Shown here in pieces: positions 1,109 to 28,343 of a stretch of DNA of 64,000 nt. The stretch lies in IMG/VR virus record IMGVR_UViG_3300032053_000036, positions 1-64,000 of that record. One strand, 5' to 3'. The stretch comes from a virus. Taxonomy: Duplodnaviria > Heunggongvirae > Uroviricota > Caudoviricetes > Crassvirales. The stretch's first letter is position 1. Each line of letters begins with the position of its first letter. The translations under genes and the position numbers were made by a program. The notes under the pieces were generated by a model. The model saw only the letters and a list, made by a program, of their open reading frames with translations. It was not told the DNA's origin and did not search any database.

Positions 1109-1109
1109 G

Positions 1110-1655
1110 TTATTCTATTTTAGCTGTTGAATCAGCAGCTTTTAATGAATCAAGTCTTTGGTTATATGAATTTATAATGCTGTCCAACTGTTCCTGTGTA
1201 AGTAATGGAATCATTGGGGCTATTGTATCTTTCTTTACCTGGTATATAGTGTCAGGCTTTGCTATAATAGGACCATATTTCCATTCATCATACTTTCCTA
1301 GAACATAATCCATCCCTTTATCAAAGAATGTTTCACGATCATTATCTTCATTTGATGCAGATGTTGTAACAAGAGAAGAATGAAACAACATGTAAGTTAG
1401 GCACGACATAAAGAATATAGTCATTAATATTGTTTTAAGTTCATGCAGCCAACCATCATATCTCATTAAGTATTTAGGTTCTATATCCTCTCTACCTCTC
1501 CACACATCTCTTATAATCATCCACCATTTCATTTTAAACTCCTTTGGGTTGATTATTGGAAGAGTTTTTTTCTTATCCCATCCTTCAGGCTTACCATATT
1601 CAAATTTCTTTGTTGTGGTTTCCTCTGTTGTGTATATATTCTCTGGCTTGTTCAT
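1110..1655 (-). CDS. Membrane-anchored protein with a single predicted TM helix (181 aa).
   Basis: Hydrophobic stretch ILMTIFFMSCLTYMLF flanked by charged regions. Confidence 0.45.
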   Translation of the reverse strand: MNKPENIYTTEETTTKKFEYGKPEGWDKKKTLPIINPKEFKMKWWMIIRDVWRGREDIEPKYLMRYDGWLHELKTILMTIFFMSCLTYMLFHSSLVTTSASNEDNDRETFFDKGMDYVLGKYDEWKYGPIIAKPDTIYQVKKDTIAPMIPLLTQEQLDSIINSYNQRLDSLKAADSTAKIE

Positions 1656-1666
1656 AATTGTAATGT

Positions 1667-2008
1667 TTAAACTTCTTCTAATTGTGTTTGTTTTAGTAAT
1701 TCATCCATAGAGAACGCTGTGTTATTACAATCTTTAATCATTTGCATTAGCAGTAATAAGTTTTCATGTGTGAATGCAAATCTACTTGCTGCAAAATACT
1801 CATAAGGAAGACAGCAATCATCTAGTGCTATCTCATCAAGATGAACTCCTAGTGCTTGTGAAGGAATGCTCCACACTGTATATATAATGTAATAGGTTTC
1901 TCCCTTCTTCACCCATTTATCAACAGGAATCTCTTTAGGTCTTTTAGTGTCATCAATACATATTGCTTCTATCATAATGTGCAAATTTAAGAAATAAAAA
2001 CCCCTCAT
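1667..2008 (-). CDS. Hypothetical protein. The true start is probably the internal Met (MIEAICIDD, about 1975), because the annotated ATG lies inside the terminator hairpin.
   Basis: ORF track, plus a hairpin/terminator at 1994-2020 that overlaps the first codons. Confidence 0.4.
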   Translation of the reverse strand: MRGFYFLNLHIMIEAICIDDTKRPKEIPVDKWVKKGETYYIIYTVWSIPSQALGVHLDEIALDDCCLPYEYFAASRFAFTHENLLLLMQMIKDCNNTAFSMDELLKQTQLEEV

Positions 2009-2026
2009 GTAGAAACATAAGGGGAA
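1994..2026 (-). terminator. Rho-independent terminator downstream of the outer-membrane protein gene.
   Basis: Minus-strand hairpin CCCCTTATG-TTTCTA-CATGAGGGG (9 bp, 1 mismatch) followed by TTTTTATTTCTT. Confidence 0.45.
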
Positions 2027-2073
2027 TCAAAAAAAAATGAATATAAAAATCTATTACAAATATAATATAAATA

Positions 2074-2553
2074 TTACAAAGTGTATGCCACTACTAATGC
2101 AATGGTTTTAACAGGGTTTGTTTTCTCAACAATACTAATATAACGTGCATCAACATTAACATGATTCATTTTAACTCCTATGAATGGAGCAAATGAGAAT
2201 GATGTTGTACCATTGTCTTTCTTGTTATAAAATGATAATCCTGCTGAAGAACCAAAATAGGCACTCTCATTAACAAAATACTTTAGTCCAACCATCATTG
2301 GTACTGTAGCAAAGTTTGTCTCAGGATCAGCCTTGAAACGTACATAACCAAAGTCTACAATACCTGTAAACTTGTTATTATACTTTGTACTCACTTGAAA
2401 CCATGTAGAACCAAGATTTACATGTACTTTCTCACTGTTAGCGTCTGTAGGAAGTGCTGTTACAAGACCTACACTAAGGTTTGGCTTTTGTAATTTCTGT
2501 GCGTATGATGCAAATGATGCAAATGATGCAATAATAAGAACTAATTTCTTCAT
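2074..2553 (-). CDS. Secreted outer-membrane beta-barrel-like protein (159 aa) with a Sec signal peptide.
   Basis: N-terminus MKKLVLIIASFASFASYAQK is a Bacteroidota-style signal peptide. The remainder alternates aromatic and hydrophobic residues (FGYVRF, VGLKYFV, SFYNKK, ALVVAYTL), typical of small 8-strand OMPs. Confidence 0.5.
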   Translation of the reverse strand: MKKLVLIIASFASFASYAQKLQKPNLSVGLVTALPTDANSEKVHVNLGSTWFQVSTKYNNKFTGIVDFGYVRFKADPETNFATVPMMVGLKYFVNESAYFGSSAGLSFYNKKDNGTTSFSFAPFIGVKMNHVNVDARYISIVEKTNPVKTIALVVAYTL

Positions 2554-2577
2554 GTTTTAAAATTTTAGATGACAAAT

Positions 2578-2796
2578 TTAATATTTTTCTTTGATTTCAA
2601 GCAAAATAACATTCCTATTTATAACTTGGAGTGCTTTTCCTTCTTTCTCTGTATATATGAGCTGTCTAGCTCTTTTGGCTGTTAAGCCTCTAAAACCATA
2701 ATCAAATGGTGTATCTTCAAGCCTTACAGGCTCTTCTGTAAGAAGAGAGATGTAATTAACATACACATCTCTCTCCATTGCATAGAATCTTCTCAT
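2578..2796 (-). CDS. Hypothetical protein (72 aa).
   Basis: Intact ORF. Its start overlaps the upstream stop (ATGA-type coupling). Confidence 0.4.
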   Translation of the reverse strand: MRRFYAMERDVYVNYISLLTEEPVRLEDTPFDYGFRGLTAKRARQLIYTEKEGKALQVINRNVILLEIKEKY

Positions 2797-3017
2797 TATT
2801 TTGTTCTTTTAAACCTAACAACAAATTGTTTATACTCTTCTGAAGGAGCATAAAAGTATTTATGTTTGGTGATTGTCAATCTATTAGACTTTCTGCCTGT
2901 ATGAGCAAATATTCTATCTATAAGACAAAATGAATTAGCAGTGTTGTCTAGGACTAAAATGTTGTCTCTAGAATGGTCTCTACTACACCATTCTAAACGT
3001 GTGCTTTTAATACGCAT
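2796..3017 (-). CDS. Hypothetical basic protein (73 aa).
   Basis: Intact ORF in an operon-like array. Confidence 0.4.
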   Translation of the reverse strand: MRIKSTRLEWCSRDHSRDNILVLDNTANSFCLIDRIFAHTGRKSNRLTITKHKYFYAPSEEYKQFVVRFKRTK

Positions 3018-3037
3018 GGTTGTGGGGTTTTAATTGT

Positions 3038-3796
3038 TTACATTGTTTTGAACATTTCAAATAGTCTACCTGATTCTTGTGTAGCAAGAGCAAACCTGGT
3101 TTTATTTCTTTTTATCTTCTTGATGAATAGATCATGATCATATGAACTTATAGATCTTCTAAATTTAACATACTCACTACACAAATATCTATTCTCAAAT
3201 CTGCTCATACGATTAACAATCTTTAAAAGATCTGTTAATTGCTTAACTATTTCTACGTTTTGTTTCTCATCTATAATTCTGAATTCTCCTCTTTTTATCT
3301 TTCTTGAGGTTGATCCACCAGATCCTGCCATTCCTCCAGATAGGATATCAGCAAGGATACTGAACTCAAAATCATAAGTAGATTGATATTCGTTTAGCTT
3401 TATATAATCCTCAATCAAAGATGCCCATGCTGTAACATAATCTTGTATAGACCAATTCTTAGAACTTGCATTTAATAAAGCAAGAACCTCAATTAATTCT
3501 TTAGGATCTTTAATAGGAATAAGTACGTATGGAATATCTACGTTGTTCCTAAGGCATGCAGTGAACATGTGCTGACCATCAATTATATACTTGGTCATTC
3601 TTCCTGTAATAAAACTTAGTTCAGCAACAATTACAGGTCTCAATATATCTATTTTGCTAATAGACTCAGCAATAGGATTTACATGAGATGAAACGATTGG
3701 TCTGTTTATACCAGACAAAATACTTAACGCTTTTTTAGAACCTGCTTTCAACCATTTAATGTTTCTTAATGGTGATTTACTTAATAATGCTTTCAT
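3038..3796 (-). CDS. ParB/sulfiredoxin-fold protein with a DGQH motif (252 aa); ParB-like nuclease or DndB-like DNA-binding family.
   Basis: Segment KYIIDGQHMFTACLRNNVDIPYVLIP matches the ParBc/DGQHR-type core (Y-h-h-DGxH-x-x-A-x9-IP). There is a basic C-terminal half. Confidence 0.5.
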   Translation of the reverse strand: MKALLSKSPLRNIKWLKAGSKKALSILSGINRPIVSSHVNPIAESISKIDILRPVIVAELSFITGRMTKYIIDGQHMFTACLRNNVDIPYVLIPIKDPKELIEVLALLNASSKNWSIQDYVTAWASLIEDYIKLNEYQSTYDFEFSILADILSGGMAGSGGSTSRKIKRGEFRIIDEKQNVEIVKQLTDLLKIVNRMSRFENRYLCSEYVKFRRSISSYDHDLFIKKIKRNKTRFALATQESGRLFEMFKTM

Positions 3797-3828
3797 TGTT
3801 TTAATTTTTGATTTCTATGTTTATAAAA

Positions 3829-3866
3829 TTGTTTAAAAAGAAAATGTGCCCAGTTTCCCAGGCACA
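3829..3866 (-). terminator. Rho-independent terminator.
   Basis: Minus-strand hairpin TGTGCC-(10 nt)-GGCACA followed by TTTTCTTTTT. Confidence 0.45.
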
Positions 3867-3892
3867 TAATTCTCATCCATCCCCATAATATT

Positions 3893-4033
3893 TTATCTAT
3901 GGTGTATTCTTGAACTTACATTAAACTGTCTACACCATTGGTTATACTCTCGTACATTGAATGGTCTTTCAGTTGGTGTTAATTTGTTTAGCTGTAGGTC
4001 ATTGTTCTTTGGCTTAATGCCAAATAGTCTCAT
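3893..4033 (-). CDS. Possible small basic protein (about 46 aa, MRLFGIKPK...). The longer poly-Met version (to 4168) is probably an artefact.
   Basis: The ORF-track entry 3893..4168 overlaps the acidic-protein gene in another frame. Only the distal part is non-overlapping. Confidence 0.2.
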   Translation of the reverse strand: MRLFGIKPKNNDLQLNKLTPTERPFNVREYNQWCRQFNVSSRIHHR

Positions 4034-6960: not shown

Positions 6961-7099
6961 CTATTATTACATCTGTCCACCCTTGGGAACTAATCACTCC
7001 AGATTACTCTGTGTTGCATATCAGTCCTTTATACGACTAATGGTGTGATTAGGCAGTTTTTACCTGCGTGGATTGTGGTGCATTAAACAAATGGGCCTA

Positions 7100-7291
7100 T
7101 TACAGCCCATATATTATCGACTCTAAACCTAAATCATTACATATGTTAAAAGTATTCCTACTAGTCATAATTGTTTCTGTATTACCACTAGGCTGTATAA
7201 GTATAACCTTTACATCCTTAATGTCAGAACCTTTCATTAATGATATGTCATTGTATGAGAAACTAGTTCCCTTTACTACTAATGTTTCCAT
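7100..7291 (-). CDS. Possible small ORF (63 aa).
   Basis: It overlaps an equally weak plus-strand ORF (7068..7319). I chose minus only because of the neighbouring gene direction. Confidence 0.15.
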   Translation of the reverse strand: METLVVKGTSFSYNDISLMKGSDIKDVKVILIQPSGNTETIMTSRNTFNICNDLGLESIIYGL

Positions 7292-7440
7292 GTTATTGCT
7301 ATATATTTTGTTTGAATAATTGTTTCTGAGTATTGTAATTTATTGGTCTTAAGGGCTAAGTGAGTATACTGCACTCTGTTTATCAATGAGTTATGAATAT
7401 TCCCACCCAAATGAGCCACGTACATTGCTCCCACCCTTAT

Positions 7441-7475
7441 ATACGAAAAAGAAAGAGGGACAAAGTCCCCCTTTC
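7441..7475 (-). terminator. Strong rho-independent terminator after the GC-rich gene.
   Basis: Minus-strand hairpin GAAAGGGGGAC-TTT-GTCCCTCTTTC (11-bp stem) followed by TTTTTCGTAT, 18 nt past the stop. Confidence 0.6.
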
Positions 7476-7492
7476 GAGAATTGCGTCAGCAA

Positions 7493-7930
7493 TTAGACAG
7501 AAGCATTAGCCAATGTGCTGACATCACTTGTGGTTAAGCCACGAGAAGATGCAATCTTAGTGGTCTCGTGTTGAATCTCTTGTTCCAAGAGGTTCTCTTC
7601 AACGTGAGCACCAATAAGTTGTGTCTTCTTAGTGAAGACAGACAAGGCAGTAAGACGTGTCATTGTGTTAGAGCCATCAGCAAAAGGAATAGAATTCCCT
7701 TGGTCGTCTTTTCTTGCATTGAAGGTTTTAATTTCAGCAATGCAGAAAAGAGGATTGTCAACTGTGATAGGGTTTGTGCCCTTCACTTTGTCTGTGCCAA
7801 TCATTTCATTGGTCAGACCAAGTGATGTTAGTTGACGAGAGTAGATGTGAATTCTTTCGCCTTTTGATGTGTAGGCAGACACGTTACCCTTGTCTGTGCA
7901 AGTGGCAGAAGTGATGATGTAATTTTTCAT
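7493..7930 (-). CDS. Hypothetical protein (145 aa) in a GC-rich, moron-like cassette.
   Basis: It has the longest intergenic region upstream and its own terminator. Its GC looks about 10 points above its neighbours. CCCACCC motifs flank it. Confidence 0.5.
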   Translation of the reverse strand: MKNYIITSATCTDKGNVSAYTSKGERIHIYSRQLTSLGLTNEMIGTDKVKGTNPITVDNPLFCIAEIKTFNARKDDQGNSIPFADGSNTMTRLTALSVFTKKTQLIGAHVEENLLEQEIQHETTKIASSRGLTTSDVSTLANASV

Positions 7931-8151
7931 CTTTTTGAATGTTTTAGTGAAAAAATGATTAAAAATGTAGCGTGGTGGGGGATTACCCCAACACCCTTTG
8001 CGTAGGCTGGGGTGCCAATATGGAGTAGTCTCTTCTCCTATAGATATAGTATGCCTACCATTTTAGAAAAAATTTTATTTTTTTGTAACAAGAATATTCC
8101 TGACCTTTGAAGGGTGGAGGGTGGGAATAGATCTTCCTTAATACATAAACG

Positions 8152-8403
8152 ATGATTATACCTTTATTGCTTATTACGTTAATCACTTTTATAGCCTATC
8201 CTATTATATTTGGATTAAGGGATGCTATGTTTGTTGATTTTATATTAGAGGTGAAAATCCTATCTAGTCAGTATTATACATTTGGTATGTGGTTTATACA
8301 GCATGATGTAGAAGATCCTGAATATATAGAGCAGGAATTTACAATTGCTCTGTTTTTATTCTCTATGTCCCTAGTGTTTTATAAGCATAAAGACGATGCA
8401 TAA
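8152..8403 (+). CDS. Small membrane protein (83 aa).
   Basis: Hydrophobic N-terminus IIPLLLITLITFIAYPIIFGL. It is the first gene of the rightward array. Confidence 0.4.
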   Translation: MIIPLLLITLITFIAYPIIFGLRDAMFVDFILEVKILSSQYYTFGMWFIQHDVEDPEYIEQEFTIALFLFSMSLVFYKHKDDA

Positions 8404-8456
8404 TATAGCTATGTAGAAAACAATTGTATTTGGAAGTATAACAAGTTTGATTATAT

Positions 8457-8825
8457 TTGTATAAACTAAATATGGAACCAACAAAAGGAATATTACAGAA
8501 GCTCAGAAGGAAGGAAGACAATGATCTCCTAATAGCAGAGAAATATTACACCATCCTTTCAGCTGTTAACAATCTCCATTTGACAAATAGAGAGATACAG
8601 CTTATAGCGTTTACAGCTGTTAAGGGGAACATTTCTTATTCTAATATTAGGCAGGAGTTTTGTGACATTTACAAGACAACAAGTCCAACGATTAATAATA
8701 TAATCAGTAAGCTTAAGAAGATTAAAGTGCTAGTGAAGGATGGGACAAAAGTGAAGGTGAATAATATGATTGTTCTGGATTTTGCAAAGGACATAACATT
8801 AGAAATTAAGCTGACGCATGGATAA
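8457..8825 (+). CDS. Hypothetical protein (122 aa), possibly DNA-binding.
   Basis: Intact ORF. Basic, with a helix-rich composition. Confidence 0.4.
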   Translation: MYKLNMEPTKGILQKLRRKEDNDLLIAEKYYTILSAVNNLHLTNREIQLIAFTAVKGNISYSNIRQEFCDIYKTTSPTINNIISKLKKIKVLVKDGTKVKVNNMIVLDFAKDITLEIKLTHG

Positions 8826-9231
8826 GCCCATTTCACTATCTATGAAGGAATATCTTGTCAGGACACAAGCTGTCAAGATGATGATTTCTGAAAAAACAAT
8901 TGAGGCTGTAATAAACCACCAGTTTAATACAGCAAATGAGGCGTTGAAGACAAATAATAGTGTAGAAATCTCAGGATTTGGAAAGTTTACGTTCAACTAC
9001 AAGAAGGCCCTGAAGAAGATGGAGAAGATGTTGTCTCAACAGCAGCTCTTTCAAAGTAGGATAGATAATCCTGCATTGTCAGAACAGAGAAGAGCAACAG
9101 AAACAGTGAAACTAAATAATGTCATTCATAATATAAACATTTTAAAACCAAAGCTTTATGAATTTCAAACAAATCCTGGAGGGCTGGAGGAACAACACCC
9201 TGCCACCAACGCATCTGAAGGAACTGATTAG
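8818..9231 (+). CDS. HU/IHF-like histone-like DNA-binding protein (137 aa).
   Basis: MKEYLVRTQAVKMMISEKTIEAVINHQFNTANEALKTNNSVEISGFGKFTFNYKK aligns position by position with the HU N-terminal helices and the GFGxF beta-strand (E. coli HU: ...[20 protein letters not shown]). The arm region is degenerate. Confidence 0.45.
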   Translation: MDKPISLSMKEYLVRTQAVKMMISEKTIEAVINHQFNTANEALKTNNSVEISGFGKFTFNYKKALKKMEKMLSQQQLFQSRIDNPALSEQRRATETVKLNNVIHNINILKPKLYEFQTNPGGLEEQHPATNASEGTD

Positions 9232-9910: not shown

Positions 9911-10188
9911 GACGAGCAAGTGCATATAATCAAATCCTAGGAGTTCTTCATGAGCTACAGAAAGAATATCCTCAGTATAACATAGGGAGACATTTGGCCA
10001 CAGCACTAGATGTGTATGGAGATGTGTGGGGAGTTCCTGATACAGAAATCCTATTTGCTTTGTTTAAATACAGATCACAATTAGGAATGGACTTCAAACA
10101 CTCTGAAGTGTATGATATTGAAAGGATTATAGAAGATGGGATAGATCTTGATAACATATTAAAAGAAGAAGATAATGGCAACAGTTAA
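9907..10188 (+). CDS. Hypothetical protein (93 aa).
   Basis: Intact ORF. Confidence 0.4.
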   Translation: MRRASAYNQILGVLHELQKEYPQYNIGRHLATALDVYGDVWGVPDTEILFALFKYRSQLGMDFKHSEVYDIERIIEDGIDLDNILKEEDNGNS

Positions 10189-10552
10189 AAAACAAATGAT
10201 TAAACGTAAGGATGGTTCTACATCTCAACGTGGATTGTGGGATAACATAAGAGCTAATGCAGGCTCTGGTAAAAAGCCTACACCTGAAATGCTTAAGCAG
10301 GAAAAGAAAATAAAGCAAGCTAAAACAGGAGCATGGCAGAGAAAGGAAGGAAAGAGTCCTTCTGGTGGTCTCAATGCTAAGGGTAGAGCATCATTAAAAG
10401 CTGAGGGGCATAATATCAAACCTCCTCAGCCAGAAGGTGGTCCTAGGAAAAAGTCATTCTGTGCTAGGATGGGTGGAGTAAAAGGACCTATGAAAAAACC
10501 TGATGGATCACCAACAAGAAAAGCTTTAGCTTTAAGAAAATGGAAATGTTAA
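10175..10552 (+). CDS. Very basic Lys/Arg/Gly/Pro-rich protein (125 aa); nucleic-acid-binding or internal virion protein.
   Basis: Composition KRKDGSTSQRG...GKKPT...KKIKQAK...RKKSF. Confidence 0.45.
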   Translation: MATVKKQMIKRKDGSTSQRGLWDNIRANAGSGKKPTPEMLKQEKKIKQAKTGAWQRKEGKSPSGGLNAKGRASLKAEGHNIKPPQPEGGPRKKSFCARMGGVKGPMKKPDGSPTRKALALRKWKC

Positions 10553-10553: not shown

Positions 10554-10886
10554 ATGGCAGCAGTAAAAAAAACTACATACATCAACACAGAGCTCGAATG
10601 GGCTGAGACACAACTCAAATCATGGAAGCAATATGTTGATGCCAATCCACTTCACGAACTGAAGGATAGGATTGAATGGAAACCTACATCTAAAGGAGGA
10701 CTACTTCCTATGGTGATAGCCTCTATAGAAGCTCAAGGTAAGTTTGTCCAAGAGACAATGAAGAACTATCTTGCACTGGTAGAAGTGGTGGACAAGCTGA
10801 GAAGCTTAGAAGAAGCAAAAGTTGAGGTGAGAGGGAAGGGAGATCTTTCAGGAATAGCTGAAGACTTCCTTAAAAACAGAAGATAA
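10554..10886 (+). CDS. Hypothetical protein directly upstream of TerL (110 aa). A small terminase subunit is possible but not supported by any motif.
   Basis: Position only. It shares the N-terminal MA(A/T)VKK with the preceding gene. Confidence 0.3.
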   Translation: MAAVKKTTYINTELEWAETQLKSWKQYVDANPLHELKDRIEWKPTSKGGLLPMVIASIEAQGKFVQETMKNYLALVEVVDKLRSLEEAKVEVRGKGDLSGIAEDFLKNRR

Positions 10887-12907
10887 TGAAACTACAAAGC
10901 ATAGATTACAAAGATTGGTTTATGAACCAGAAAAGACTTCCTGATAAGGGGTCTTCTGAATATAAATCATTCTTTGATTTTCATAAGGAGCTTTGTTTAA
11001 ATGGAGCTATGATGGGGGATGTTTACATCAACCCATTTTTGTATTGGCACTTAAACATCTGGCATACAGAGGTGGATATAATAGATGACTATGGAAGAAT
11101 AAACCAGAAATATGCCAATCCTCTTCTTAGGGACAATGAGTGGTTGGTGAGTAATGAGATAGATAGAGCTCAAAAAGACAAGAAAGGTTTAGTCATACTT
11201 GGTATACGAAGGTTTGCTAAGTCTGTTTTGGAAGCAAGTTATATAGGCTGGGGAGCAACATTTGATGAGAACTCTCAGAACATTATTGCAGGACTGAATG
11301 CTCCAGATATAAAGTTGATTACAGATAAGCTTGACAAAGGCTTAAACTTTCTTCCTGAGTATTGGAGATGGCAGAGAATTGAGGACAACTGGAAGAATCA
11401 GGTGACATTAGGTATAAAGACAAAGGCAGGAGAAAGAATACCATTCTCACAAATCCTCATCAGGAACTTAGATGAAGGTAATAATGAAGAAGCTATTGCA
11501 GGTACAAAACCTCGTAAGCTAATTATAGATGAGATTGGTAAAGGAAGTTTCTTAAGAGGTTTCCAAGCAGCTGTGCCTGGTTTCACTACACCATTTGGTT
11601 GGGGTTGTTCTCCAATCTTGACAGGAACAGGTGGTGATATGAAACGATTCATGGATGCCAAGAGTCTTATGTTTGACGTGGACAACTTTAACTTCCTTAC
11701 ATATAACAATGAAAAGGATGAGAGAAGAATCCATGGCTTATTCATTTCTCATAAGTATAGAATGGAGGCAAAGGAAGATTCTACATTAGGAGCTTTCTTA
11801 AATCAGCCTATAGGTTCAGACTTGTACAACGTAAAAATGCTTGTGTCTAATGAGGAGAAAGCTAAGCTGATAACAGATACAAACCTTGATAGATTAAAAA
11901 AGGCTGGAGACAGGATTGCATATTTGAAAGAGAAGATGTACTATCCTCAGGAAGTGGATGATATATTCCTGAATGAAGACACAAACATCTTTGATATTGA
12001 GGCTGCCAAGAGACAGAAGACAAGACTATTGAATCAGGAGAGAACAGGAATACCTGTAGTGTTATTTAATGATGGAGAGAAGATTTGCCATGAGTTTACA
12101 GATAAGCAACCCATATCAAACTTCCCCCTTAAGAATAGCGATCTGAAGGATGCTCCAGTTGTTATATATGAATTCCCTGTAGAAAATCCTCCATATGGAT
12201 TGTATGTAGCAGGAGTCGATCCCTACAGACAAGGAAAGTCTGAATACAGTTCTTCTTTAGGAGCTGTATACATATATAAGAGAATGCATGAGCTGACAGG
12301 CGAGAAGTATCAAGATATGTTTGTAGCCAGTTACTGTGCAAGACCTGATAAGAAGGAAGTGTGGGAAGAACAAGCACGTCTACTCATAAAGTATTTTAAT
12401 GCTAGAACACTTTGTGAGAATGATGATATCTCCTTCATAGAATATATGAAAAGCAAGGGAGATGCTCACTACCTAGAAAAACAACCTGGATGGTTATTGG
12501 AAGTGGTTCCAAATACTACTGTCAAACGTGAGTATGGCGTGCATCGTTCTTCAGATAAGATTAGAGACTATCTGCATAACTGTCTTAAGAAGTATCTAGA
12601 GGAAGTGGTATATAAAGAAACAAATGAGGATGGGGATACAATACGAGAGCTAACAGGTGTCACTAAAATATTTGATCCTGTTTTGCTTGAGGAGATTATA
12701 CAGTATAATGATGTAAGTAACTTTGATAGAATCATTGCAGCAGAACTAGCTATTGCACAGGCACTCAAGATGGACCCTATAATGGGAAAGGTGGGAGGTT
12801 CAGGTGATGAAAGAGTGAAGGCTATGTTCTCATCACAAAAGAAAAACACATTGTTCTCTGAATCAAGAGGACTATTTAATAGTAAAAAACGTAAACTGTT
12901 TACATAA
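10886..12907 (+). CDS. terL: Terminase large subunit (673 aa).
   Basis: Walker-A-like GIRRFAKS, Walker-B-like KLIIDEIGK, and a C-terminal RNaseH-fold nuclease signature YVAGVDPYRQGKSEYSSSLGAVYIY. It lies immediately upstream of the portal gene. Confidence 0.75.
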   Translation: MKLQSIDYKDWFMNQKRLPDKGSSEYKSFFDFHKELCLNGAMMGDVYINPFLYWHLNIWHTEVDIIDDYGRINQKYANPLLRDNEWLVSNEIDRAQKDKKGLVILGIRRFAKSVLEASYIGWGATFDENSQNIIAGLNAPDIKLITDKLDKGLNFLPEYWRWQRIEDNWKNQVTLGIKTKAGERIPFSQILIRNLDEGNNEEAIAGTKPRKLIIDEIGKGSFLRGFQAAVPGFTTPFGWGCSPILTGTGGDMKRFMDAKSLMFDVDNFNFLTYNNEKDERRIHGLFISHKYRMEAKEDSTLGAFLNQPIGSDLYNVKMLVSNEEKAKLITDTNLDRLKKAGDRIAYLKEKMYYPQEVDDIFLNEDTNIFDIEAAKRQKTRLLNQERTGIPVVLFNDGEKICHEFTDKQPISNFPLKNSDLKDAPVVIYEFPVENPPYGLYVAGVDPYRQGKSEYSSSLGAVYIYKRMHELTGEKYQDMFVASYCARPDKKEVWEEQARLLIKYFNARTLCENDDISFIEYMKSKGDAHYLEKQPGWLLEVVPNTTVKREYGVHRSSDKIRDYLHNCLKKYLEEVVYKETNEDGDTIRELTGVTKIFDPVLLEEIIQYNDVSNFDRIIAAELAIAQALKMDPIMGKVGGSGDERVKAMFSSQKKNTLFSESRGLFNSKKRKLFT

Positions 12908-15501
12908 TGGCAATTATAAGGTATACAAAAGATGCTACTATACGCTATGCGTATCTAAACATATTTCCTGATCAGTTCAAAACTGATAAAGAGAAACAAG
13001 ATGAAAGCTGGGTGAAGAATACAATGGACTACTTTGCAAATAAGGCTTATGCTGAGTATGTAAAGAATAGAGATACATTTGTTAAGAACTATGACTTGGT
13101 AAAGGGTATTCTAAGAATGGAAGACTTCTATCAGGAACCACAAGTGAAGAGCTTCACTGATATGCTCACTACAGATCTTCAGCTTCCTGCGTATGTGAAG
13201 CACTATTCAATCATCACCACACCAATCAATGAACTTGTAGGAGAGATATCAAAACGTCCTGATGCATTTAGAGTGAAGGCTTTTGATGAAGATAGTCAGG
13301 CTGAAGAGCTACAATTCAAGACAGAATTATTGCAACAGTTTGTAATAGGAACTGCAAAACAGAAACTATTAGAAAAAGCTGCAATGAGTGGTCAGGAATT
13401 AGGAGAAGAAGAAATGGAACAAATTGAACAGATGTCAATGGATCAGGTGAAAGATCAACTTGATACATACACATCTGTAGCTGAGAAATGGGCCAACCAC
13501 ATCTTAACTTGTCAAAAGGCAGAATTTAATTTAAAAGAAAAAAGTGAAGATGCTTTCAGAGATATGCTTATTTCTGCAAGAGAATTCTATCATATATATG
13601 AAGACAATAGCAAACTTGGGTTTAACATTGAGGTGGCGAATCCTAAGAACACATGGTTCCTTACCACTCCTGATAGAAAATATATCTCTGATCCCACAGG
13701 AAGAGCTCAGGGGGCTTACGCAGCTGGTACAGTTCAAGTCATGGAGCTTTCTGAAATTATTGAGTCAATTCCTGACCTAACAAAAGATGAGATTGACCAC
13801 TTACGTTCATCTCTCCAGGATTATGGTTTGATCAATGTTAGAGAATCAAACCTTGGTAATCCTAATGCAATCCCTGGTCAAGACTCAGTACAATATGATA
13901 CATTTGATCCATTAGTCCTTCAGACAAGAATGATTATTGAATCTGAAATGAAGAACAATGATGATGGGTTACAAGATTTCTTAGGACTTACATCTAATGT
14001 ATCTTCATTTGGATATAAGTATGTAGTGGTTAGAGCTTATTGGATTTCTAAGAAGAAGATTGGTAAGCTAATCTATATAGATGAAATGGACAATGAGCAA
14101 TCTATGCTTGTTGATGAAACATACAAGAGTGGAGCTATACCTACACAACAATCTTTAGATTGGGGATGGGTAAATCAATGGTATCAAGGAATTAAGATTG
14201 GTCCAGACATCTATCACATTAAGCCATACAAACTACTCAACTATTGTCCAATCATAGGACTTACGCATGAGATTAAGAATACAGAAGCAAGATCTTTGGT
14301 AGACTTAATGAAACCTTTCCAGGTGTTATATAATGTTTGTATGAATCAGCTTTACAAACTTCTTGAGAAAGAGGTTGGTAAGGTTTATCTTACATCTATC
14401 AGACACATTCCTATTCCTAAGGATGGTGATGCTCAAGATGCTCTTGACATATGGGAAATGGAAGCACGTAACAGAGGGGTGATGTTTATAGATGATTCTC
14501 CAGAGAATCTAAAATCTCCATCTAGCTTCAATCAGTTTAGAGATATTGATCTTACACGTACGCAGGAGATACAGTCTAGATATAATCTAGCAATGCAGTT
14601 GAAGAATGAGTGTTGGGAACTTATAGGTATGTCAAGACAAAGAATGGGATCTATATCAGCAAGTGAATCTGCAACAGGTACAAATACAGCTATACAACAA
14701 TCTTATTCTCAGACAGAACCTATATTTGTAGCACATGAGTATGTAATGGGTCAGTTGTATCAAGCAATTATAGATGCTGCTTTATATGTAGAAGCTAAAA
14801 AGCCACAGTCAACCCTTTCATACATTACATCTGAAGGAGAATCTGCCTTTGTTCAAGTGAATGGCGCAGATCTCAGATTTAGAGATCTTAAAGTGTTCTT
14901 AACTAACAGACCAGAAGACAAACAAATGTTCCAAGAGATCAGAGCACTTTCTCAGGCTGTTCTACAAAATGGTGGTTCGTTACATGATGTGATTGAGTTG
15001 TATTCTACAAACTCTATGAGAGAAATGAAGAAGGTGTTTAAGACTCTTAAAGAAAGACAAGAGTCTATGCAAGATCAGCAGATGCAACAGCAACAACAAC
15101 AAATGGAACAACAGCAACAACAAGCTCAGGCTCAGTTGCAACAAACAGCTCAAATGGCTCAAGAGAAACAAGCTAATGATGATTATCAAAAAGAACTCGA
15201 TAGATTGTCTAAAGAGAAAATTGCTATCATTCAAGCTACAGGATATGGTAATGTTCCAGGAGAAGATGTTGATAAGAATGCAATTCCTGATGTTCTAGAG
15301 ATGAGCAAACTCACTCATGACCAAGAGAAAGCTGCTAAAGATTACCAAGTAAAACTTGCTGAGATTAATTCTAAAAACAAACAAGCTTCAGATAAGATGG
15401 CTATTGAGAGAGAGAAGCTTCAAGTGGCTAGAGAGAATCAAGCTAATGACTTAGCTGTAGCTAAAGAGAATGCTAAAGGTAGAGCTAAAAAATCTAAATA
15501 A
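12907..15501 (+). CDS. Portal protein (864 aa) with a C-terminal poly-Gln coiled coil.
   Basis: Size and position between TerL and the scaffold/MCP genes. C-terminal QDQQMQQQQQQMEQQQQQAQAQLQQ plus a basic tail. Confidence 0.55.
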   Translation: MAIIRYTKDATIRYAYLNIFPDQFKTDKEKQDESWVKNTMDYFANKAYAEYVKNRDTFVKNYDLVKGILRMEDFYQEPQVKSFTDMLTTDLQLPAYVKHYSIITTPINELVGEISKRPDAFRVKAFDEDSQAEELQFKTELLQQFVIGTAKQKLLEKAAMSGQELGEEEMEQIEQMSMDQVKDQLDTYTSVAEKWANHILTCQKAEFNLKEKSEDAFRDMLISAREFYHIYEDNSKLGFNIEVANPKNTWFLTTPDRKYISDPTGRAQGAYAAGTVQVMELSEIIESIPDLTKDEIDHLRSSLQDYGLINVRESNLGNPNAIPGQDSVQYDTFDPLVLQTRMIIESEMKNNDDGLQDFLGLTSNVSSFGYKYVVVRAYWISKKKIGKLIYIDEMDNEQSMLVDETYKSGAIPTQQSLDWGWVNQWYQGIKIGPDIYHIKPYKLLNYCPIIGLTHEIKNTEARSLVDLMKPFQVLYNVCMNQLYKLLEKEVGKVYLTSIRHIPIPKDGDAQDALDIWEMEARNRGVMFIDDSPENLKSPSSFNQFRDIDLTRTQEIQSRYNLAMQLKNECWELIGMSRQRMGSISASESATGTNTAIQQSYSQTEPIFVAHEYVMGQLYQAIIDAALYVEAKKPQSTLSYITSEGESAFVQVNGADLRFRDLKVFLTNRPEDKQMFQEIRALSQAVLQNGGSLHDVIELYSTNSMREMKKVFKTLKERQESMQDQQMQQQQQQMEQQQQQAQAQLQQTAQMAQEKQANDDYQKELDRLSKEKIAIIQATGYGNVPGEDVDKNAIPDVLEMSKLTHDQEKAAKDYQVKLAEINSKNKQASDKMAIEREKLQVARENQANDLAVAKENAKGRAKKSK

Positions 15502-16031
15502 TGTTTGATAAACTGATAGATCTTATTGTACAATGGATTTCAGACATCCTTCCTATAGTGATTATTCCATCATATGAGGAGGGTGTTCGTCTTAGTTTTG
15601 GTAAATATAAAAGAACTCTTCAGCCAGGACTACATTTTAAGATTCCATTTGTTGATGAAATCCTTCACCAGCACGTAGTGGTAACAACACTCAGTCTTCC
15701 AGCACAATCATTATACACTTTAGATAAACAAAACTTTGTAGTGAAGGGTGTTGTAAAATATAAGATAGCTGATGTAAAAACATTTCTTCTAGAAGTATAT
15801 GATGCTAAAGATGCATTATCAGATATGACTATGAGTATAATAAAAAACATAGTTATATCTATTCCTGCAGAGAGATGTATAGATCCTGAATTAGATGCAC
15901 TTCTTACTAAGAAGGCAAGAGTGGAAGCTAAGAAATGGGGAGTTGATATACAACAAGTTACCCTAACAGATGTAGCACCTATTAGAAGCTTTAGACTGAT
16001 AAATGATGTGGCTGCAAACAAAATCGATTAG
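15501..16031 (+). CDS. SPFH/band-7 (stomatin/HflC/prohibitin-like) domain protein (176 aa).
   Basis: EEGVRLSFGKYKRTLQPGLHFKIPFVDEI, NFVVKGVVKYKIADVKTFLLEV, MSIIKNIV and a C-terminal KKWGVDIQQVTLTDV follow the SPFH consensus (GxxxRFGK..L.PGLHF.iPfiD.v ... wGi.v..V.i.D). Confidence 0.65.
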   Translation: MFDKLIDLIVQWISDILPIVIIPSYEEGVRLSFGKYKRTLQPGLHFKIPFVDEILHQHVVVTTLSLPAQSLYTLDKQNFVVKGVVKYKIADVKTFLLEVYDAKDALSDMTMSIIKNIVISIPAERCIDPELDALLTKKARVEAKKWGVDIQQVTLTDVAPIRSFRLINDVAANKID

Positions 16032-16089
16032 AGTAAAAAACATTAATGCTATATTATCGTGCAAATTCATACATAAAATGTTCTAACTC

Positions 16090-16120
16090 TTTGATATTAA
16101 ATAGCTAAAATCTAGATTTA
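16090..16120 (+). promoter_or_regulatory. Candidate Bacteroidota-type promoter TTTG-N19-TAGATTTA upstream of the scaffold/MCP genes.
   Basis: TTTG at 16090-16093 and TAGATTTA at 16113-16120, in a 118-nt non-coding gap. The last base is A, not the consensus G. Confidence 0.3.
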
Positions 16121-16149
16121 CAATAACAAACCAATAAAAACAACTACAT

Positions 16150-17388
16150 ATGGCAGAGAACTTAGATAACAACTTTGGCAATTTCAGTATTGAAAACACC
16201 ATGGACATGGGAATGGGAAGTGCTGAATTATTAAATGATCTTATTGCTCCAGAAACTTCAACAGGAAGTCCTGATGAGATTAAAGAGATTAAAGATGAAC
16301 CAAAGCAAGAAGCTCCTAAAACAGAACCTAAGAAGGAAGAACCTAAAGAAGATCCTTCAAAGAGTATTCAAGACTTTTTACTAGGTGGGGATGATGATGA
16401 AGAAACAGAGGAAGAAGAACCACCAGCTCCTGTAAAAAAGGCTGCTCCTGCAGAAGGTGCTAAAGAAGAACCAGTTGCTGAAGGAGAGGAAGAACAAGAA
16501 GTAAGTAGATTTGAAGCATTAGCAAATGATCTTTTTAAACTTGGTGTTTTTTCAAAAGATGAAGATGAAGATGATTCTCCAATATCTACTCCTGAGGAAT
16601 TCCTTGAAAGATTTGAAGCAGAGAAAAGAAAAGGTGCTATTGAAACAGTGAACAACTTCATTGGTCAATTTGGAGATGATTATCAAAAAGCTTTTGATGC
16701 CATATTTGTAAAAGGAGTTAATCCTAAAGAATACTTTGGTGCATATGAGTCTGTTGCAAACTTTGCAGAAATGGACTTAGCTGATGAAGCAAACCAAGTA
16801 AGAATAATTAAACAAGCATTAGCTGATCAAGGGTTTGAGGCTGATGATGTAAATAGTGAGGTTGAGAGGTTAAAAAATTATGGAGATTTAGAAAGCGTTG
16901 CTACAAAACATCACAAGGTGCTAGTAAAGAAAGAAGCTGCTAAGTTGCAACAGATGGAACAGAATGCTCAATATGAGCTTCAACAAAAACAAGCAGTTAA
17001 ACAACAGTATTTCACCAACGTACAGTCTGTTCTTCAGGAAAAACTAAAAACTAAGGAATTTGATGGTATTCCATTAAATCCCAAATTAGTAAACGAACTA
17101 CAAGATTTTCTGCTAGTAGACAAGTATAAGACCAATTCTGGAGAGACACTTACAGACTTTGATCGTACAATACTTGAACTAAAAAGACCTGAGAACCATG
17201 CTATGAAGGTTAAAGTTGGATTGCTTTTAAAGATTTTAGAAAAAGATCCATCATTATCAACAATTCAAAAGTCAGGTGTTTCAAAGAAGTCCAATGAGCT
17301 TTTCAGCGAAGTGGCTAGACAGGTTAGTAAAGGTGGAAAATCATCAAGTGGTGGTAGTGCTCAAAAAGCAAATTCTTGGTTCTTATAA
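16150..17388 (+). CDS. Acidic coiled-coil scaffold-like protein (412 aa).
   Basis: Low-complexity acidic N-terminus (KEEPKEDP, DDDEETEEEE) and position just upstream of the MCP. Confidence 0.45.
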   Translation: MAENLDNNFGNFSIENTMDMGMGSAELLNDLIAPETSTGSPDEIKEIKDEPKQEAPKTEPKKEEPKEDPSKSIQDFLLGGDDDEETEEEEPPAPVKKAAPAEGAKEEPVAEGEEEQEVSRFEALANDLFKLGVFSKDEDEDDSPISTPEEFLERFEAEKRKGAIETVNNFIGQFGDDYQKAFDAIFVKGVNPKEYFGAYESVANFAEMDLADEANQVRIIKQALADQGFEADDVNSEVERLKNYGDLESVATKHHKVLVKKEAAKLQQMEQNAQYELQQKQAVKQQYFTNVQSVLQEKLKTKEFDGIPLNPKLVNELQDFLLVDKYKTNSGETLTDFDRTILELKRPENHAMKVKVGLLLKILEKDPSLSTIQKSGVSKKSNELFSEVARQVSKGGKSSSGGSAQKANSWFL

Positions 17389-17417: not shown

Positions 17418-18977
17418 ATGGCAATTCAAACAATCCCAGGCTTAACTGGTTTTACGTATGCGAGAGTAGCCTCTATGGATAAGCGTGCTGTGGGTAAGCT
17501 CACTGACTCGAATCACTTAGAGAGCTTTCACAGCACTGAACCTGCTGACTATGACAAAAAGATCATTAGTCTTTACACTCAGAGCTCATTGTATAGCAAT
17601 GACTTCTTAGACATGATTAACAAAAGCACACCTTATTACATCGATAATAATAGTGATGCTTGGAAATGGCAAGTAGCTGTTCCCTACAAATTCCCTAAGA
17701 TTATCAATGTTCCAGAAGCAACTGCTGCTTTGGATAAAATTGGTATCGATGGTCAAGAGTTCACTCTTGTTTTGGACACTAATGAATTCTCTAAGAACGC
17801 AATCGTTTCTGTGGGTTCTCGTCAGTATGGTCCTCGTTTCTATGTAATCAAAGATCCAGTTCCTTGGAACATGGGTTACTTGTATTCTTTCAATTTGGTG
17901 ACTGACAATCCAACTGTTGACTACATTTCTTCAGGTTCTCAATTCTTACAAGTAGGTGTTGAGCTTGAATTAGTTGATGCTGCAATTGGTGAGTTTGATC
18001 AAGACTTATTAGGTCTTCCTCGTTTGGGTGAGCAAATCACAATGTTTGAATCTTTAGGTTCTGCATATGGTTATGAGCACAAAATCACTGAGTGGGCTGA
18101 TGACAAGATGATGGTTGATTCAAAAGGAAATCCTTTAGATATTTTGGTATATGCTCCTCAGCGTAGAAACCAACTTCCTTTAACTCGTAATGATGTTAAG
18201 TGGGAACCATTCATTGAGTTCTGGATGCGTAAAAGCATGTTGGAATTGAAAGTTAAGCGTATGATCTGGTCTAAACCAGGTACAGTTAAAACTGGTGGTG
18301 GCAAGCAAGAATTAAAGCGTACATCTGCTGGTGTTTACCACAGAATGCGTAACAATGGTAACTTGGTACAATACAATCGTGGTGAATTCTCTGCTAACTT
18401 GATCAGAAGCGTGTTTGGAGATTTGTTCTACAGACGTGTGGATGTTAAAGATCGTAAGGTTAAAATGTACACAAATGAAGCTGGATTTGACGTATTCCAA
18501 CAAGCTTTGAAGGCTGACGCTTTAAACAGTGGCTTGACTTTCATGGCTGATTCTGGAAATCGTTACATGCAGGGAGAAGGTCAACACATCACTTATAACT
18601 TTGCATTCGATGCAATGGTTACACGTGAAACAGGTCGTGTTGAACTTATTCACTTGAAAGAACTTGATTTGCCACAATCTAACTTAGAGTTTGGTCAAAA
18701 CAAGAAAAGCACTCCAGTGTTTATGGTATTTGATGTTAGTCCTATGAGCGATGGTTCAATGGTTAACAACATCAGAGAAGTGAGAATGAAAGGTGCTCCT
18801 TCTATGACTTGGGGTTATATCGATGGTACTCGTCACCACTTAGGTTTTGCTAAGTCTCAAGGTATGAGTTCTGCGAACAAATTCCCAGGTTATGAAATCT
18901 GGATGAAAGATCGTTGTGATGTATTCATTGAAGATTTGTCTCGTACAGTCTTGATTGAAGAGATTCCACAATTGTAA
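17418..18977 (+). CDS. Major capsid protein (519 aa, HK97-fold candidate).
   Basis: Position after the scaffold, size, strong start context (aaacaac..ATGGCA), and a terminator immediately downstream. Confidence 0.55.
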   Translation: MAIQTIPGLTGFTYARVASMDKRAVGKLTDSNHLESFHSTEPADYDKKIISLYTQSSLYSNDFLDMINKSTPYYIDNNSDAWKWQVAVPYKFPKIINVPEATAALDKIGIDGQEFTLVLDTNEFSKNAIVSVGSRQYGPRFYVIKDPVPWNMGYLYSFNLVTDNPTVDYISSGSQFLQVGVELELVDAAIGEFDQDLLGLPRLGEQITMFESLGSAYGYEHKITEWADDKMMVDSKGNPLDILVYAPQRRNQLPLTRNDVKWEPFIEFWMRKSMLELKVKRMIWSKPGTVKTGGGKQELKRTSAGVYHRMRNNGNLVQYNRGEFSANLIRSVFGDLFYRRVDVKDRKVKMYTNEAGFDVFQQALKADALNSGLTFMADSGNRYMQGEGQHITYNFAFDAMVTRETGRVELIHLKELDLPQSNLEFGQNKKSTPVFMVFDVSPMSDGSMVNNIREVRMKGAPSMTWGYIDGTRHHLGFAKSQGMSSANKFPGYEIWMKDRCDVFIEDLSRTVLIEEIPQL

Positions 18978-27095: not shown

Positions 27096-28343
27096 ATGAA
27101 TAACAATCAACAGATGATTGAACGATTGAAGGAAATGTTGTATAAGAAAAAAAGTAAAGCATATTATGCAGAAGCTTTAGGGGTAAGTGAAGAAAAGATC
27201 TCAGAACTTTATAAGGAGATGGGTAGACGACAAACAATCAACAGAGCACCAAAGAAGTTACATAGTGCTGCTAATAAATCAGTTAAGTATGAGGAGGATA
27301 TTGTAAGTGGTACAGGTGAGCTAGTTTTTAATACAGATGAGGAAATAAAAAGTCTTGATGATCTTATAAAGAAGTCAAAGATTGATACAGATAAGTGGAA
27401 TATAACTAAATACATACAGAACTATTGGGGGAATACAAACAATCCCTGTTGGCAGGTAAAAGCTTGGTTAAGTAAGAAAGGTGATGAACAGCTCTTTCAG
27501 GATTATTTTGTTGAGTTTCTAACTACCTATAAACCAGTAGCAAAGAAAACATCTGCTCCTAAGGAAACAGATAAATCAGAAGCTTGTCTAATAATAAATA
27601 AACAAGATTCTCATTTAAACAAACATGACATTAATGGTGACAATAAGATTGAATGGAGAGGTGCTGATATTGAAACAAGAGTTAGCACTATACTTGCTCA
27701 GGCAAAACTATCCAATGATCTTACAACAGTCACTTACATAATAGGATCTGATGAGTTTAATAGTGAGTGGACAGGCATGACCACTAAAGGAACTCCTCAA
27801 CAGAACACAGACGATTATCAGAAGTCTTTTGAAGAAATATGTAATCATGAGATAGATATGATTACACTTCTTTTAAGAAATGCCAAGTATGTAGAGGTTA
27901 TATATGTTCCTGGGAACCATGATGAGTATGTAGGGTGGCATTTGATAAAGTGGTTAGATGCATACTTTAGACATGATGTGCAAGATGAAAGAGTGGTGTT
28001 TAATACAGAACCAAGCTATAGGAAGTATATATCCTATGGAACTACAGCAATGATGTTTAATCATGGAGATGCTATAAAGCCTTCAAAGCTTGCAAGTATA
28101 TTTCCAATGGAATTTAGAGATGAGTGGTCATATTATGATCACTTTTATATTTTTACAGGAGATAAACACCATGAGGTTTCACAAGACTTTAATGGTATTA
28201 AGTTCTACCAGATTCCTGCCTTTTCAAAGGCAAAAAGTAAATGGGATGATAAACATGGCTACACTTGCTCTAAAGGAGAGATTACAGCTTTCCTAATAGA
28301 AAAAGGACAAGGCATGACAAACATATTTAAACAGTATTTATAA
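27096..28343 (+). CDS. Calcineurin-like metallophosphoesterase domain protein (415 aa).
   Basis: VIYVPGNHDEY (GNH[DE] motif III), MFNHGDAIKP and IFTGDKHHEV match the phosphoesterase motifs in the right order. Confidence 0.45.
   Translation: MNNNQQMIERLKEMLYKKKSKAYYAEALGVSEEKISELYKEMGRRQTINRAPKKLHSAANKSVKYEEDIVSGTGELVFNTDEEIKSLDDLIKKSKIDTDKWNITKYIQNYWGNTNNPCWQVKAWLSKKGDEQLFQDYFVEFLTTYKPVAKKTSAPKETDKSEACLIINKQDSHLNKHDINGDNKIEWRGADIETRVSTILAQAKLSNDLTTVTYIIGSDEFNSEWTGMTTKGTPQQNTDDYQKSFEEICNHEIDMITLLLRNAKYVEVIYVPGNHDEYVGWHLIKWLDAYFRHDVQDERVVFNTEPSYRKYISYGTTAMMFNHGDAIKPSKLASIFPMEFRDEWSYYDHFYIFTGDKHHEVSQDFNGIKFYQIPAFSKAKSKWDDKHGYTCSKGEITAFLIEKGQGMTNIFKQYL

Follow-up and report, generated by a model that had tools for sequence, protein, structure and literature searches.

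A bare SPFH domain encoded in an exchangeable slot between the portal and putative scaffold genes of marine crAss-like phages

Proteins of the SPFH (Band-7) superfamily are known as large membrane cages built via coiled coils, and to our knowledge all characterised members function at membranes. Here we describe the gene for a truncated representative, designated mini-SPFH (positions 15501..16031, plus strand), an ATG-to-stop open reading frame (ORF) that encodes 176 aa and a single SPFH/Band-7 domain. It lies in a stretch of 64,000 nucleotides, positions 1 to 64,000 of the IMG/VR virus record IMGVR_UViG_3300032053_000036 (Crassvirales); this whole stretch is referred to below as the window. 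Judged by its gene content, the window looks like the structural arm of a crAss-like phage from the sea, with genes in the order large terminase subunit (TerL), portal, SPFH, putative scaffold and major capsid protein (MCP). The interval between portal and putative scaffold is a cassette site, in which exchangeable cargo sits between two conserved flanks, the 3' end of the portal gene and a right-hand intergenic element. We lean, by a small measure, towards the view that the mini-SPFH product is a dispensable accessory protein, made late, carried as exchangeable cargo and probably acting at the host inner membrane.

Reports of SPFH ORFs in T4-like phages go back to 2006, and such ORFs are also described for Vi01-like phages, for relatives of Bruynoghevirus and in one gut crassvirus preprint, in each case with the role given as unknown or speculative; the literature searched yielded no study of the function of a phage SPFH protein. 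Like mini-SPFH, these genes (44RR ORF098c, Aeh1 ORF064c, RB43 ORF139c, Vi01-like gp200, those of the Bruynoghevirus relatives, and PHROG 200, annotated as 'lipoprotein') are accessories whose distribution is patchy even between close relatives. The members checked are, however, longer, or are lipoprotein or membrane forms; the PHROG 200 profile, with 379 positions, matches mini-SPFH at an E-value of just 1.5e-5, and none of these ORFs has been reported within a portal-scaffold-MCP block. A record from human faeces, MT835563, was judged irrelevant, since it has an SPFH ORF of the canonical length (301 aa) in a region crowded with overlapping ORFs on both strands.

Head modules of the HK97/lambda type carry portal, protease, scaffold and MCP in that order, and the P22 order is portal, scaffold and coat, with no protease. 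A preliminary description of this locus had assumed that the slot after the portal usually holds a prohead protease; this is true of HK97/lambda-type modules, but the module here is of the crAss/P22 type. In the structural atlas of the crassvirus PhicrAss001 the terms scaffold and protease do not occur, and neither the atlas nor the crassvirus reviews mention a prohead protease or an SPFH protein. The same description had called the arrangement unusual, and indeed no GenBank phage shows it. The sole GenBank phage with a similar MCP (26% identity) is the Leptolyngbya phage Lbo-JY46, in which the portal is followed directly by the scaffold-position gene, with nothing between.

That the ORF between the portal and the scaffold-position gene encodes an SPFH/Band-7 protein, as first proposed, was confirmed in two ways. 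A profile search with Pfam PF01145 (Band_7) matched residues 21-160 at an E-value of 2.2e-24 and 86.9 bits, against a cut-off of 23.6, and an AlphaFold2 model built on 115 homologues (mean predicted local distance difference test score, pLDDT, 95; predicted template modelling score 0.84) has the SPFH fold. Foldseek placed the model with stomatin, HflK/C, QmcA, prohibitin, erlin and flotillin (E-values 2e-14 to 1e-8), and also with the major vault protein; its 50 best matches included no protease fold, whether of a capsid protease or any other, and no protease family was found among the Pfam, PHROGs, NCBIfam or PDB sequence matches. A collection clustered at 90% identity yielded 720 homologues at E<=1e-3, the best 120 being nearly all exactly 176 aa long. 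The pairwise ratio of nonsynonymous to synonymous substitution rates (dN/dS) is 0.091, beside 0.085 for the portal, 0.086 for TerL and 0.154 for the putative scaffold. With 720 homologues and a dN/dS of about 0.09, mini-SPFH cannot be put down to chance: it is a genuine gene under purifying selection. A TTG-started shadow ORF lies within it on the minus strand (15665-16021).

The nearest solved relatives, QmcA, HflC, HflK and stomatin, match mini-SPFH in sequence with E-values from 1.6e-12 to 1e-6. The best is QmcA of E. coli (PDB 8z5g), aligned over query residues 20-162 and QmcA residues 21-166 at an E-value of 1.6e-12 and sharing the same SPFH fold (Foldseek E-value 1e-12, template modelling score 0.76). 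QmcA, however, is 305 aa long, with a hydrophobic N-terminal anchor, a long coiled-coil and C-terminal region, a 26-chain oligomer and an NfeD partner (YbbJ), whereas mini-SPFH ends after the SPFH domain at 176 aa, begins with a charged amphipathic helix and has no NfeD neighbour: neither the portal nor the putative scaffold matches NfeD in Pfam, and the scaffold and three upstream ORFs have no match in NCBIfam. HflK and HflC (PDB 7vhp, 7wi3, 9cz2) likewise have the SPFH domain in common with mini-SPFH, but they are encoded by a gene pair and possess the half that forms the cage wall and lid, which mini-SPFH lacks; it is a single gene between portal and putative scaffold, with no paralogous gene for a second subunit.

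Three segments, all encoded on the plus strand, make up the protein. An N-terminal amphipathic helix (residues 2-16; 15504..15548) was delimited from the AlphaFold2 model, in which it precedes a strand at residues 19-22, and from column conservation. It follows the pattern M-[FL]-[DE]-[KR]-L-[IL]-[DE]-[FLW]-[LI] across 115 family members, with further polar positions at 11 and 14. The SPFH core (residues 19-160; 15555..15980) consists in the model of a beta sheet at residues 19-89, helices at 92-146 and a last strand at 148-160. Column counts then define a C-terminal motif, [RK]-[ST]-[ILF]-R-[LIV]-[IFL] (residues 162-167; 15984..16001), located where canonical SPFH proteins begin their coiled coil. 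R165 is kept in 109 of the 115 sequences, and the motif sits in the lower-confidence tail of the model (pLDDT drops to 77 in the last block but one and to 61 in the last). Both family motifs are present in the window protein, which starts MFDKLID and carries RSFRL at residues 162-166.

The helix occupies the site of the membrane anchor in HflC and QmcA, aligning with the end of the HflC N-terminal segment. At 15 residues it is too short to cross a bilayer, and the first 18 residues of family members hold a median of 4 charged residues and reach a median maximum hydropathy of 1.36, the usual threshold being 1.6; from these properties a genuine membrane anchor appears unlikely, and no signal peptide was detected in mini-SPFH. 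At the other end, all alignments stop near residue 160 (positions 2-147 of 176 in the Pfam profile, 1-148 of 261 in the hflK profile and residues 21-166 of 305 in QmcA), so the coiled-coil and cap region of SPFH cages is absent. Scores against the hflK (TIGR01933) and hflC (TIGR01932) families were 69.2 and 43.8 bits, with cut-offs of 159.4 and 134.4, and on this profile evidence mini-SPFH is not an HflK, HflC or stomatin orthologue. Of the original label 'stomatin/HflC-like scaffold', then, the SPFH likeness stands; the HflK and HflC cut-offs are missed, the coiled-coil half is absent and the N-terminal helix is short and amphipathic. Its predicted shape, a compact alpha/beta domain, is also unlike that of an elongated, mainly alpha-helical phage scaffolding protein.

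We define the mini-SPFH family as proteins of ~168-185 aa, encoded on phage contigs, that align from residue 1 and carry both the N-terminal helix and the C-terminal motif. An exhaustive search of 1.84 billion cluster representatives at 50% identity gave 3,764 matches at E<=1e-3, and the best 150 of these were nearly all 168-192 aa long and aligned from residue 1. In a set of 185,579 genomes representing bacterial and archaeal species, the top match (35% identical) lies on a T7-like phage contig within a metagenome-assembled genome (MAG), together with genes for lysozyme, endonuclease I, exonuclease and DNA polymerase A; the other matches listed are 25-37% identical and most start near residue 19, like ordinary cellular SPFH proteins. 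Because the best cellular-genome match is thus on a phage contig and the others resemble ordinary cellular SPFH proteins, the family looks phage-specific. Of 50,697 phage records none has a close homologue, and Lbo-JY46 and all the cultured crassviruses among them lack one at E<=1e-3. The nearest viral structure prediction in BFVD is a 173-aa 'HflK' of an uncultured phage (template modelling score 0.89), the other BFVD matches having 258-500 aa, and the automatic annotation at JGI labels members of the family 'regulator of protease activity HflC'. A neighbour-joining tree of the proteins, computed without support values, was star-like and supports no conclusion on whether the head-module copies are monophyletic.

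Since sampling anchored on SPFH itself cannot show its absence, the slot was surveyed through TerL. Eighty of 546 TerL-matched loci were sampled (TerL 83-88% and MCP 90-96% identical to those of the window), and 75 of them, representing 65 distinct genotypes, hold both the portal and the scaffold gene. A mini-SPFH gene of the window type (type 1, 64-86% identical) occupies the slot in 58 of the 75 loci (50 genotypes); a second type, 24-36% identical to the window protein, is found in three loci (3 genotypes), two small ORFs replace it in ten (8 genotypes), and in four (4 genotypes) the slot is empty, with 141-149 nt from portal to scaffold. The 14 relatives without SPFH in the slot have an MCP 92-95% identical and a portal ~82% identical to those of the window. 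As phages with near-identical capsid, portal and scaffold do without it, mini-SPFH is not required for head assembly, nor can it be a protease substitute. If the protein organises head assembly, as had been suggested, this can hardly be an essential role.

The alternative occupants differ in kind. Type-2 proteins are still Band_7 proteins (E-value 1e-12), with nearest representatives ~40% identical, but have a different N-terminus and begin 28-157 nt past the end of the portal match instead of abutting it; they were found at 8974-9492 in L172, 7080-7607 in L220 and 7607-8134 in L242, on genomes whose MCP is ~94% identical to that of the window. The two-ORF cassette (L178, L180, L182, L183, L185, L188, L212, L213, L232, L235) encodes an acidic protein of 78-83 aa and an overlapping one of 84 aa with an HEHFH (HExxH-type) motif. 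Pfam gave no match to either ORF, and the 84-aa one, for which the PDB search was negative too, is not called a peptidase here. In two further loci an extra gene precedes the SPFH gene, one of them of the Endonuclease VII type (Pfam E-value 8e-26). This 140-aa Endonuclease VII-type gene lies exactly at the portal/SPFH junction, at 8712-9134 in L169 and as a 425-nt insert in L009 and L019, the L019 copy carrying an in-frame stop; the insert is probably a homing endonuclease.

The gene is wired to the portal on its left. The portal stop TAA shares one base with the SPFH start in the sequence TAATG (15499..15503, plus strand). Of 56 SPFH-anchored relatives, 46 share this 1-nt overlap and 8 more have a 2-nt gap. 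Identical stop/start joining is seen at TerL/portal (12907) and between TerL and the ORF before it (10886), so that mini-SPFH is the last cistron of an overlapping run of TerL, portal and SPFH; the overlap implies that its translation would be coupled to that of the portal. On the right, the spacer to the next gene always measures 117-123 nt in the SPFH-anchored relatives and forms a conserved intergenic element, the right-hand boundary of the slot (16032..16149, plus strand), which comprises TTAGAGTAAAAAA, a 14-mer, a promoter-like pattern and the leader AACTACATATGG. In an alignment of 14 spacers the invariant blocks are the 14-mer TTAATGCTATATTA (16043-16056, occurring once only within the window), TCTTTG, TTTAC and that leader. 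The element is kept whatever the slot contains in 74 of the 75 loci, the exception being the empty-slot locus L200, whose 14-mer has a 1-nt variant.

The promoter-like pattern, TTTG-N19-TAnnTTTA at 16090-16120, resembles the Bacteroidota -33/-7 promoter consensus. It recurs at 8429 and 46740, each time immediately 5' of a gene start; across the window, Bacteroidetes-type patterns are not enriched (7, against 4.3 in shuffled sequence), and a sigma-70 promoter and terminator scan around the mini-SPFH gene likewise gave counts close to those of shuffled sequence (33 and 32 promoters, 7 and 4.8 terminators). A promoter in the element is therefore proposed from its conservation and position, not from enrichment. 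If it is real, SPFH closes a low-copy TerL-portal unit, and scaffold and MCP have their own, presumably stronger, start. Classical morons have their own promoter and terminator. The portal/scaffold slot resembles moron-type slots and homing-endonuclease sites in its conserved flanks, alternative unrelated contents, empty state and Endonuclease VII insertion, but differs from the former in that mini-SPFH has, by the scan, neither promoter nor terminator of its own and is coupled to the portal.

Two distant crAss-like contigs, L080 (126 kb) and L081 (70 kb), also carry portal, a small ORF, mini-SPFH, a scaffold-position gene and MCP in that order. Their SPFH proteins are 49-51% identical to that of the window, although MCP (~22%), portal (~28%) and TerL (29-36%) are far less so, whereas within the window clade the order is reversed: median dN is 0.20 for SPFH, 0.13 for portal and 0.05 for MCP, and identity within the clade runs from 64% to 93% for SPFH and from 93% to 100% for MCP. 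Because the order of identities in L080 and L081 opposes that within the clade, the simplest explanation is that lineages have exchanged the SPFH gene, rather than strict co-descent. The clade MCP is in fact unusually conserved, portal, TerL and the gene after MCP having a dN of 0.12-0.13.

Several other features of these contigs were noted. The small ORF directly 5' of mini-SPFH (7729-7998 in L080, 7738-7998 in L081) encodes 86-89 aa with a lipoprotein-like hydrophobic N-terminus ending in Cys (MKLILILFTFLCKPG and MDFLFSILFTIICKPG), and its product may be a membrane partner of mini-SPFH. Both contigs have mobile endonuclease elements among their packaging genes: L081 has a 1,048-aa ORF in the TerL position (880-4026) with LAGLIDADG/Hom_end matches, a possible intein, and in L080 separate Endonuclease_7 and NUMOD1 genes flank the portal (3061-3807 and 7000-7713). 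Mosaicism also reaches the close relatives: in L029 and L074 TerL is just 57% identical to that of the window, the portal 81% and the MCP 94% (the last seen in L074), which indicates terminase exchange within the clade.

Outside the crAss-like head module, family members occur in a variety of neighbourhoods. In a T7-like contig from a Phycisphaeraceae MAG (L088, 5127-6513), genes for a lysozyme and a 135-aa protein with a transmembrane segment (PHROG 2524) precede that for a 170-aa mini-SPFH, the sole context found that joins the family to a lysis-type cassette. Elsewhere mini-SPFH comes after TerL in a T7-like podovirus, where the late region ends; adjoins a KaiC-like ATPase and a PHROG 'membrane protein'; adjoins a multi-transmembrane protein; adjoins metallophosphoesterase-like genes; precedes a GTP-cyclohydrolase-I-like gene; or, in a group of contigs up to ~110 kb, lies near a cobalamin adenosyltransferase gene. 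The metallophosphoesterase-like and cyclohydrolase-like neighbours were judged by eye, the former from motifs. The membrane-protein neighbours in several of these contexts are suggestive. Contexts of distant members come from few contigs, and when the divergent members P0134, P0147 and P0125 were each used alone as a query against IMG/VR, no match was obtained.

From these observations we propose, with slightly better than even confidence, the accessory-protein reading given at the outset. Most of that confidence attaches to the part which states that mini-SPFH is accessory, not morphogenetic and not a canonical HflK/C; the membrane step is held more tentatively and falls somewhat short of probable. 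In the proposed sequence of events, mini-SPFH would be a late product, about as abundant as the portal, and for lack of a signal peptide would stay in the cytoplasm. It would then dock on the cytoplasmic face of the host inner membrane through its amphipathic helix and SPFH domain, a step suggested by the membrane function of characterised SPFH proteins, by the presence of a hydrophobic-faced helix at the anchor site and by the absence of an export signal. There it would alter a host membrane process and so raise phage fitness in some hosts. This might be the way in which a membrane protease such as FtsH reaches its substrates, the integrity of the envelope or the timing of lysis, or the exclusion of competitors or defence against them. 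One of the functions first suggested for the gene, that it modulates FtsH or some other membrane protease, is thus possible, and a looser proposal in which the truncated protein interferes with host SPFH/FtsH complexes is a candidate counted within this reading.

Several points weigh against it. The evidence for the membrane step consists of homology and helix chemistry, and the helix has acidic residues (D3, D7, D15) on its polar side, which is unusual for binding anionic bacterial membranes and would fit a protein-protein interface as well. The window protein itself reaches a hydropathy of 1.89 over residues 4-24, above the 1.6 threshold, so that a true anchor is possible; this value arises because the stretch continues into the hydrophobic first strand. 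The contexts in other phages are anecdotal, with one to a few loci each. In PADLOC-DB no defence-system family matches mini-SPFH at E<=0.01, which gives no tie to known defence families. Finally, retention in ~80% of the relatives sampled, the overlap with the portal and the occurrence of two very different mini-SPFH types in the slot would fit a non-essential link to the portal or head pathway as well as they fit a role directed at the host.

A bolder form of the accessory-protein reading, which we regard as rather unlikely, takes the portal/scaffold junction to be a hot-spot of interchangeable host-interaction cassettes and mini-SPFH to be a new class of phage effector, without a cage, that docks on the inner membrane late in infection and disables or redirects a host membrane system. 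Its targets would be FtsH/SPFH proteostasis, envelope stress or abortive-infection effectors, or the entry of competing phages, and the other cassettes found in the slot would serve equivalent functions, adapted to other hosts.

The T4 membrane chaperone gp40 aids assembly of the portal gp20. A kindred idea, that mini-SPFH oligomerises at the membrane and there tethers or nucleates assembly of the portal ring and procapsid, raising efficiency without being essential, is the main rival of our reading but also seems unlikely. It draws on the start/stop overlap with the portal in 46 of 56 relatives and the position kept in L080 and L081, on the second mini-SPFH type in the same slot, on purifying selection equal to that of the portal, and on the general character of SPFH proteins, by the titles of their PDB entries, as ring-forming membrane scaffolds. 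Fourteen of the 75 relatives nevertheless lack SPFH in the slot, as do Lbo-JY46 and the cultured crassviruses; family members stand far from portal genes in other phages, and the coiled coil that drives ring formation is missing.

It is improbable that mini-SPFH is a virion component, that is, a decoration of the capsid or portal vertex or a minor head protein whose N-terminal helix binds the capsid. The precedent would be gp21 of PhicrAss001; this head fibre is a trimer that binds a hexon pocket through its first 38 residues, and the authors who described it note that uncharacterised proteins may fill that role in other crassviruses. Its gene number follows that of the portal, gp20, and, like mini-SPFH, it varies between lineages and is not universal among crassviruses; it has ~97 aa, however, is a proven virion component and shows no kinship to mini-SPFH in sequence or fold. 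Decoration proteins are typically dispensable and lineage-variable, and 3 peptides of an SPFH protein were present in a virion preparation of a Vi01-like phage, albeit at trace level. Against this, a capsid-binding peptide would be expected to co-vary with its capsid, yet MCP identity is 93-100% where that of SPFH is 64-93%, the protein can be swapped for one ~25% identical, and the N-terminal motif is kept across phages with unrelated structural genes or with the gene outside the structural module.

HflK and HflC are located on the periplasmic side of the membrane. We give marginally less credence still to a strict HflK/C- or stomatin-like cage, one that organises membrane microdomains or encloses and regulates host FtsH. 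The closest characterised relatives of mini-SPFH are QmcA, HflK, HflC and stomatin, and HflK/C regulates FtsH according to the PDB titles; but the scores fall more than 90 bits under both the HflK and HflC cut-offs, coiled coil, C-terminal domain, second subunit and NfeD partner are lacking, and the periplasmic topology would be out of reach of a protein that appears to have neither an export signal nor a full-length membrane-spanning helix. A prohead maturation protease, or a replacement for one, has next to nothing in its favour beyond positional analogy with HK97/lambda-type modules, there being no protease by sequence or fold, no protease described for crAss/P22-type modules, and a slot that can be empty.

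The remainder of the window accords with the crAss-like assignment in several places. TerL (673 aa; 10886..12907, plus strand) matches the phrog_6681 terminase large subunit at an E-value of 4e-83, and the portal (864 aa; 12907..15501, plus strand) matches P22_portal (2.6e-15), phrog_6547 (1.2e-96) and PhicrAss001 gp20 (PDB 7qog; 1.1e-32). Beyond the slot and its right-hand element follow the putative scaffolding protein (412 aa, acidic; 16150..17388, plus strand) and the MCP (519 aa; 17418..18977, plus strand), the latter identified by Crass_capsid PF23898 (1.2e-26) and phrog_11589 (6e-32). The scaffold assignment is putative, made from the position between portal and MCP and from the predicted structure: a single-sequence model, whose low confidence (pLDDT 49) limits its use to secondary-structure content, shows residues 1-113 as acidic and disordered and the remainder as all-alpha, including a long helix (247-300). 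The gene also evolves fast, its dN/dS being the highest of the module. Pfam gave it nothing significant (a single weak match falls far under the cut-off) and the PDB no match; the PDB sequence search likewise returned nothing for g19073 and g20839. At the sequence level, no protease was matched elsewhere in the head block among 18 other proteins scanned from 10886 to 42764 and four large proteins beyond.

Family matches further identify crAss tail ring proteins 2 and 1 (28343-29071 and 29551-30516). The first ~300 residues, and only these, of a 2,839-aa ORF (30494-39013, plus strand) match the crassvirus muzzle protein (E-value 2e-33), and a 4,402-aa ORF (49478-62686, plus strand) has no Pfam or other family match; both ORFs are much bigger than the PhicrAss001 counterparts would suggest. 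To the left of TerL, an HU/IHF-like gene (8818-9231, plus strand) matches Bac_DNA_binding (6e-8), and just 5' of the TerL operon an ORF at 10175-10552 (plus strand), whose start overlaps the preceding ORF by 14 nt, encodes a very basic Gly/Lys/Pro-rich protein of 125 aa with no family match. A strand switch lies at ~7930-8152, with the larger ORFs on the minus strand to its left and on the plus strand to its right; GC and AT skew flip sign there, and a promoter-like TTTG-N-TAnnTTTG occurs nearby at 8429-8459. The GC content of the window is 31-38%. Its close relatives are contigs of ~110-115 kb, abundant in marine and other environmental metagenomes.

Given the existing HflC labels at JGI, an SPFH domain in such phage proteins is not itself new. 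What appears to be undescribed in the literature searched is a truncated architecture that has motifs of its own, the confinement of this architecture to phages, and its standing as the majority allele of a slot in a crAss-type head operon. Two cautions for annotation follow: the label 'HflC, regulator of protease activity' is no proof of function, and position within a head module is no proof of a morphogenetic role. The slot variants (type 1, type 2, two ORFs and empty), carried on near-identical capsids, provide a natural comparison set. The target of mini-SPFH, if found, would reveal what the SPFH domain is capable of on its own, and might point to a host membrane process that marine phages of the Bacteroidota type must control late in infection.

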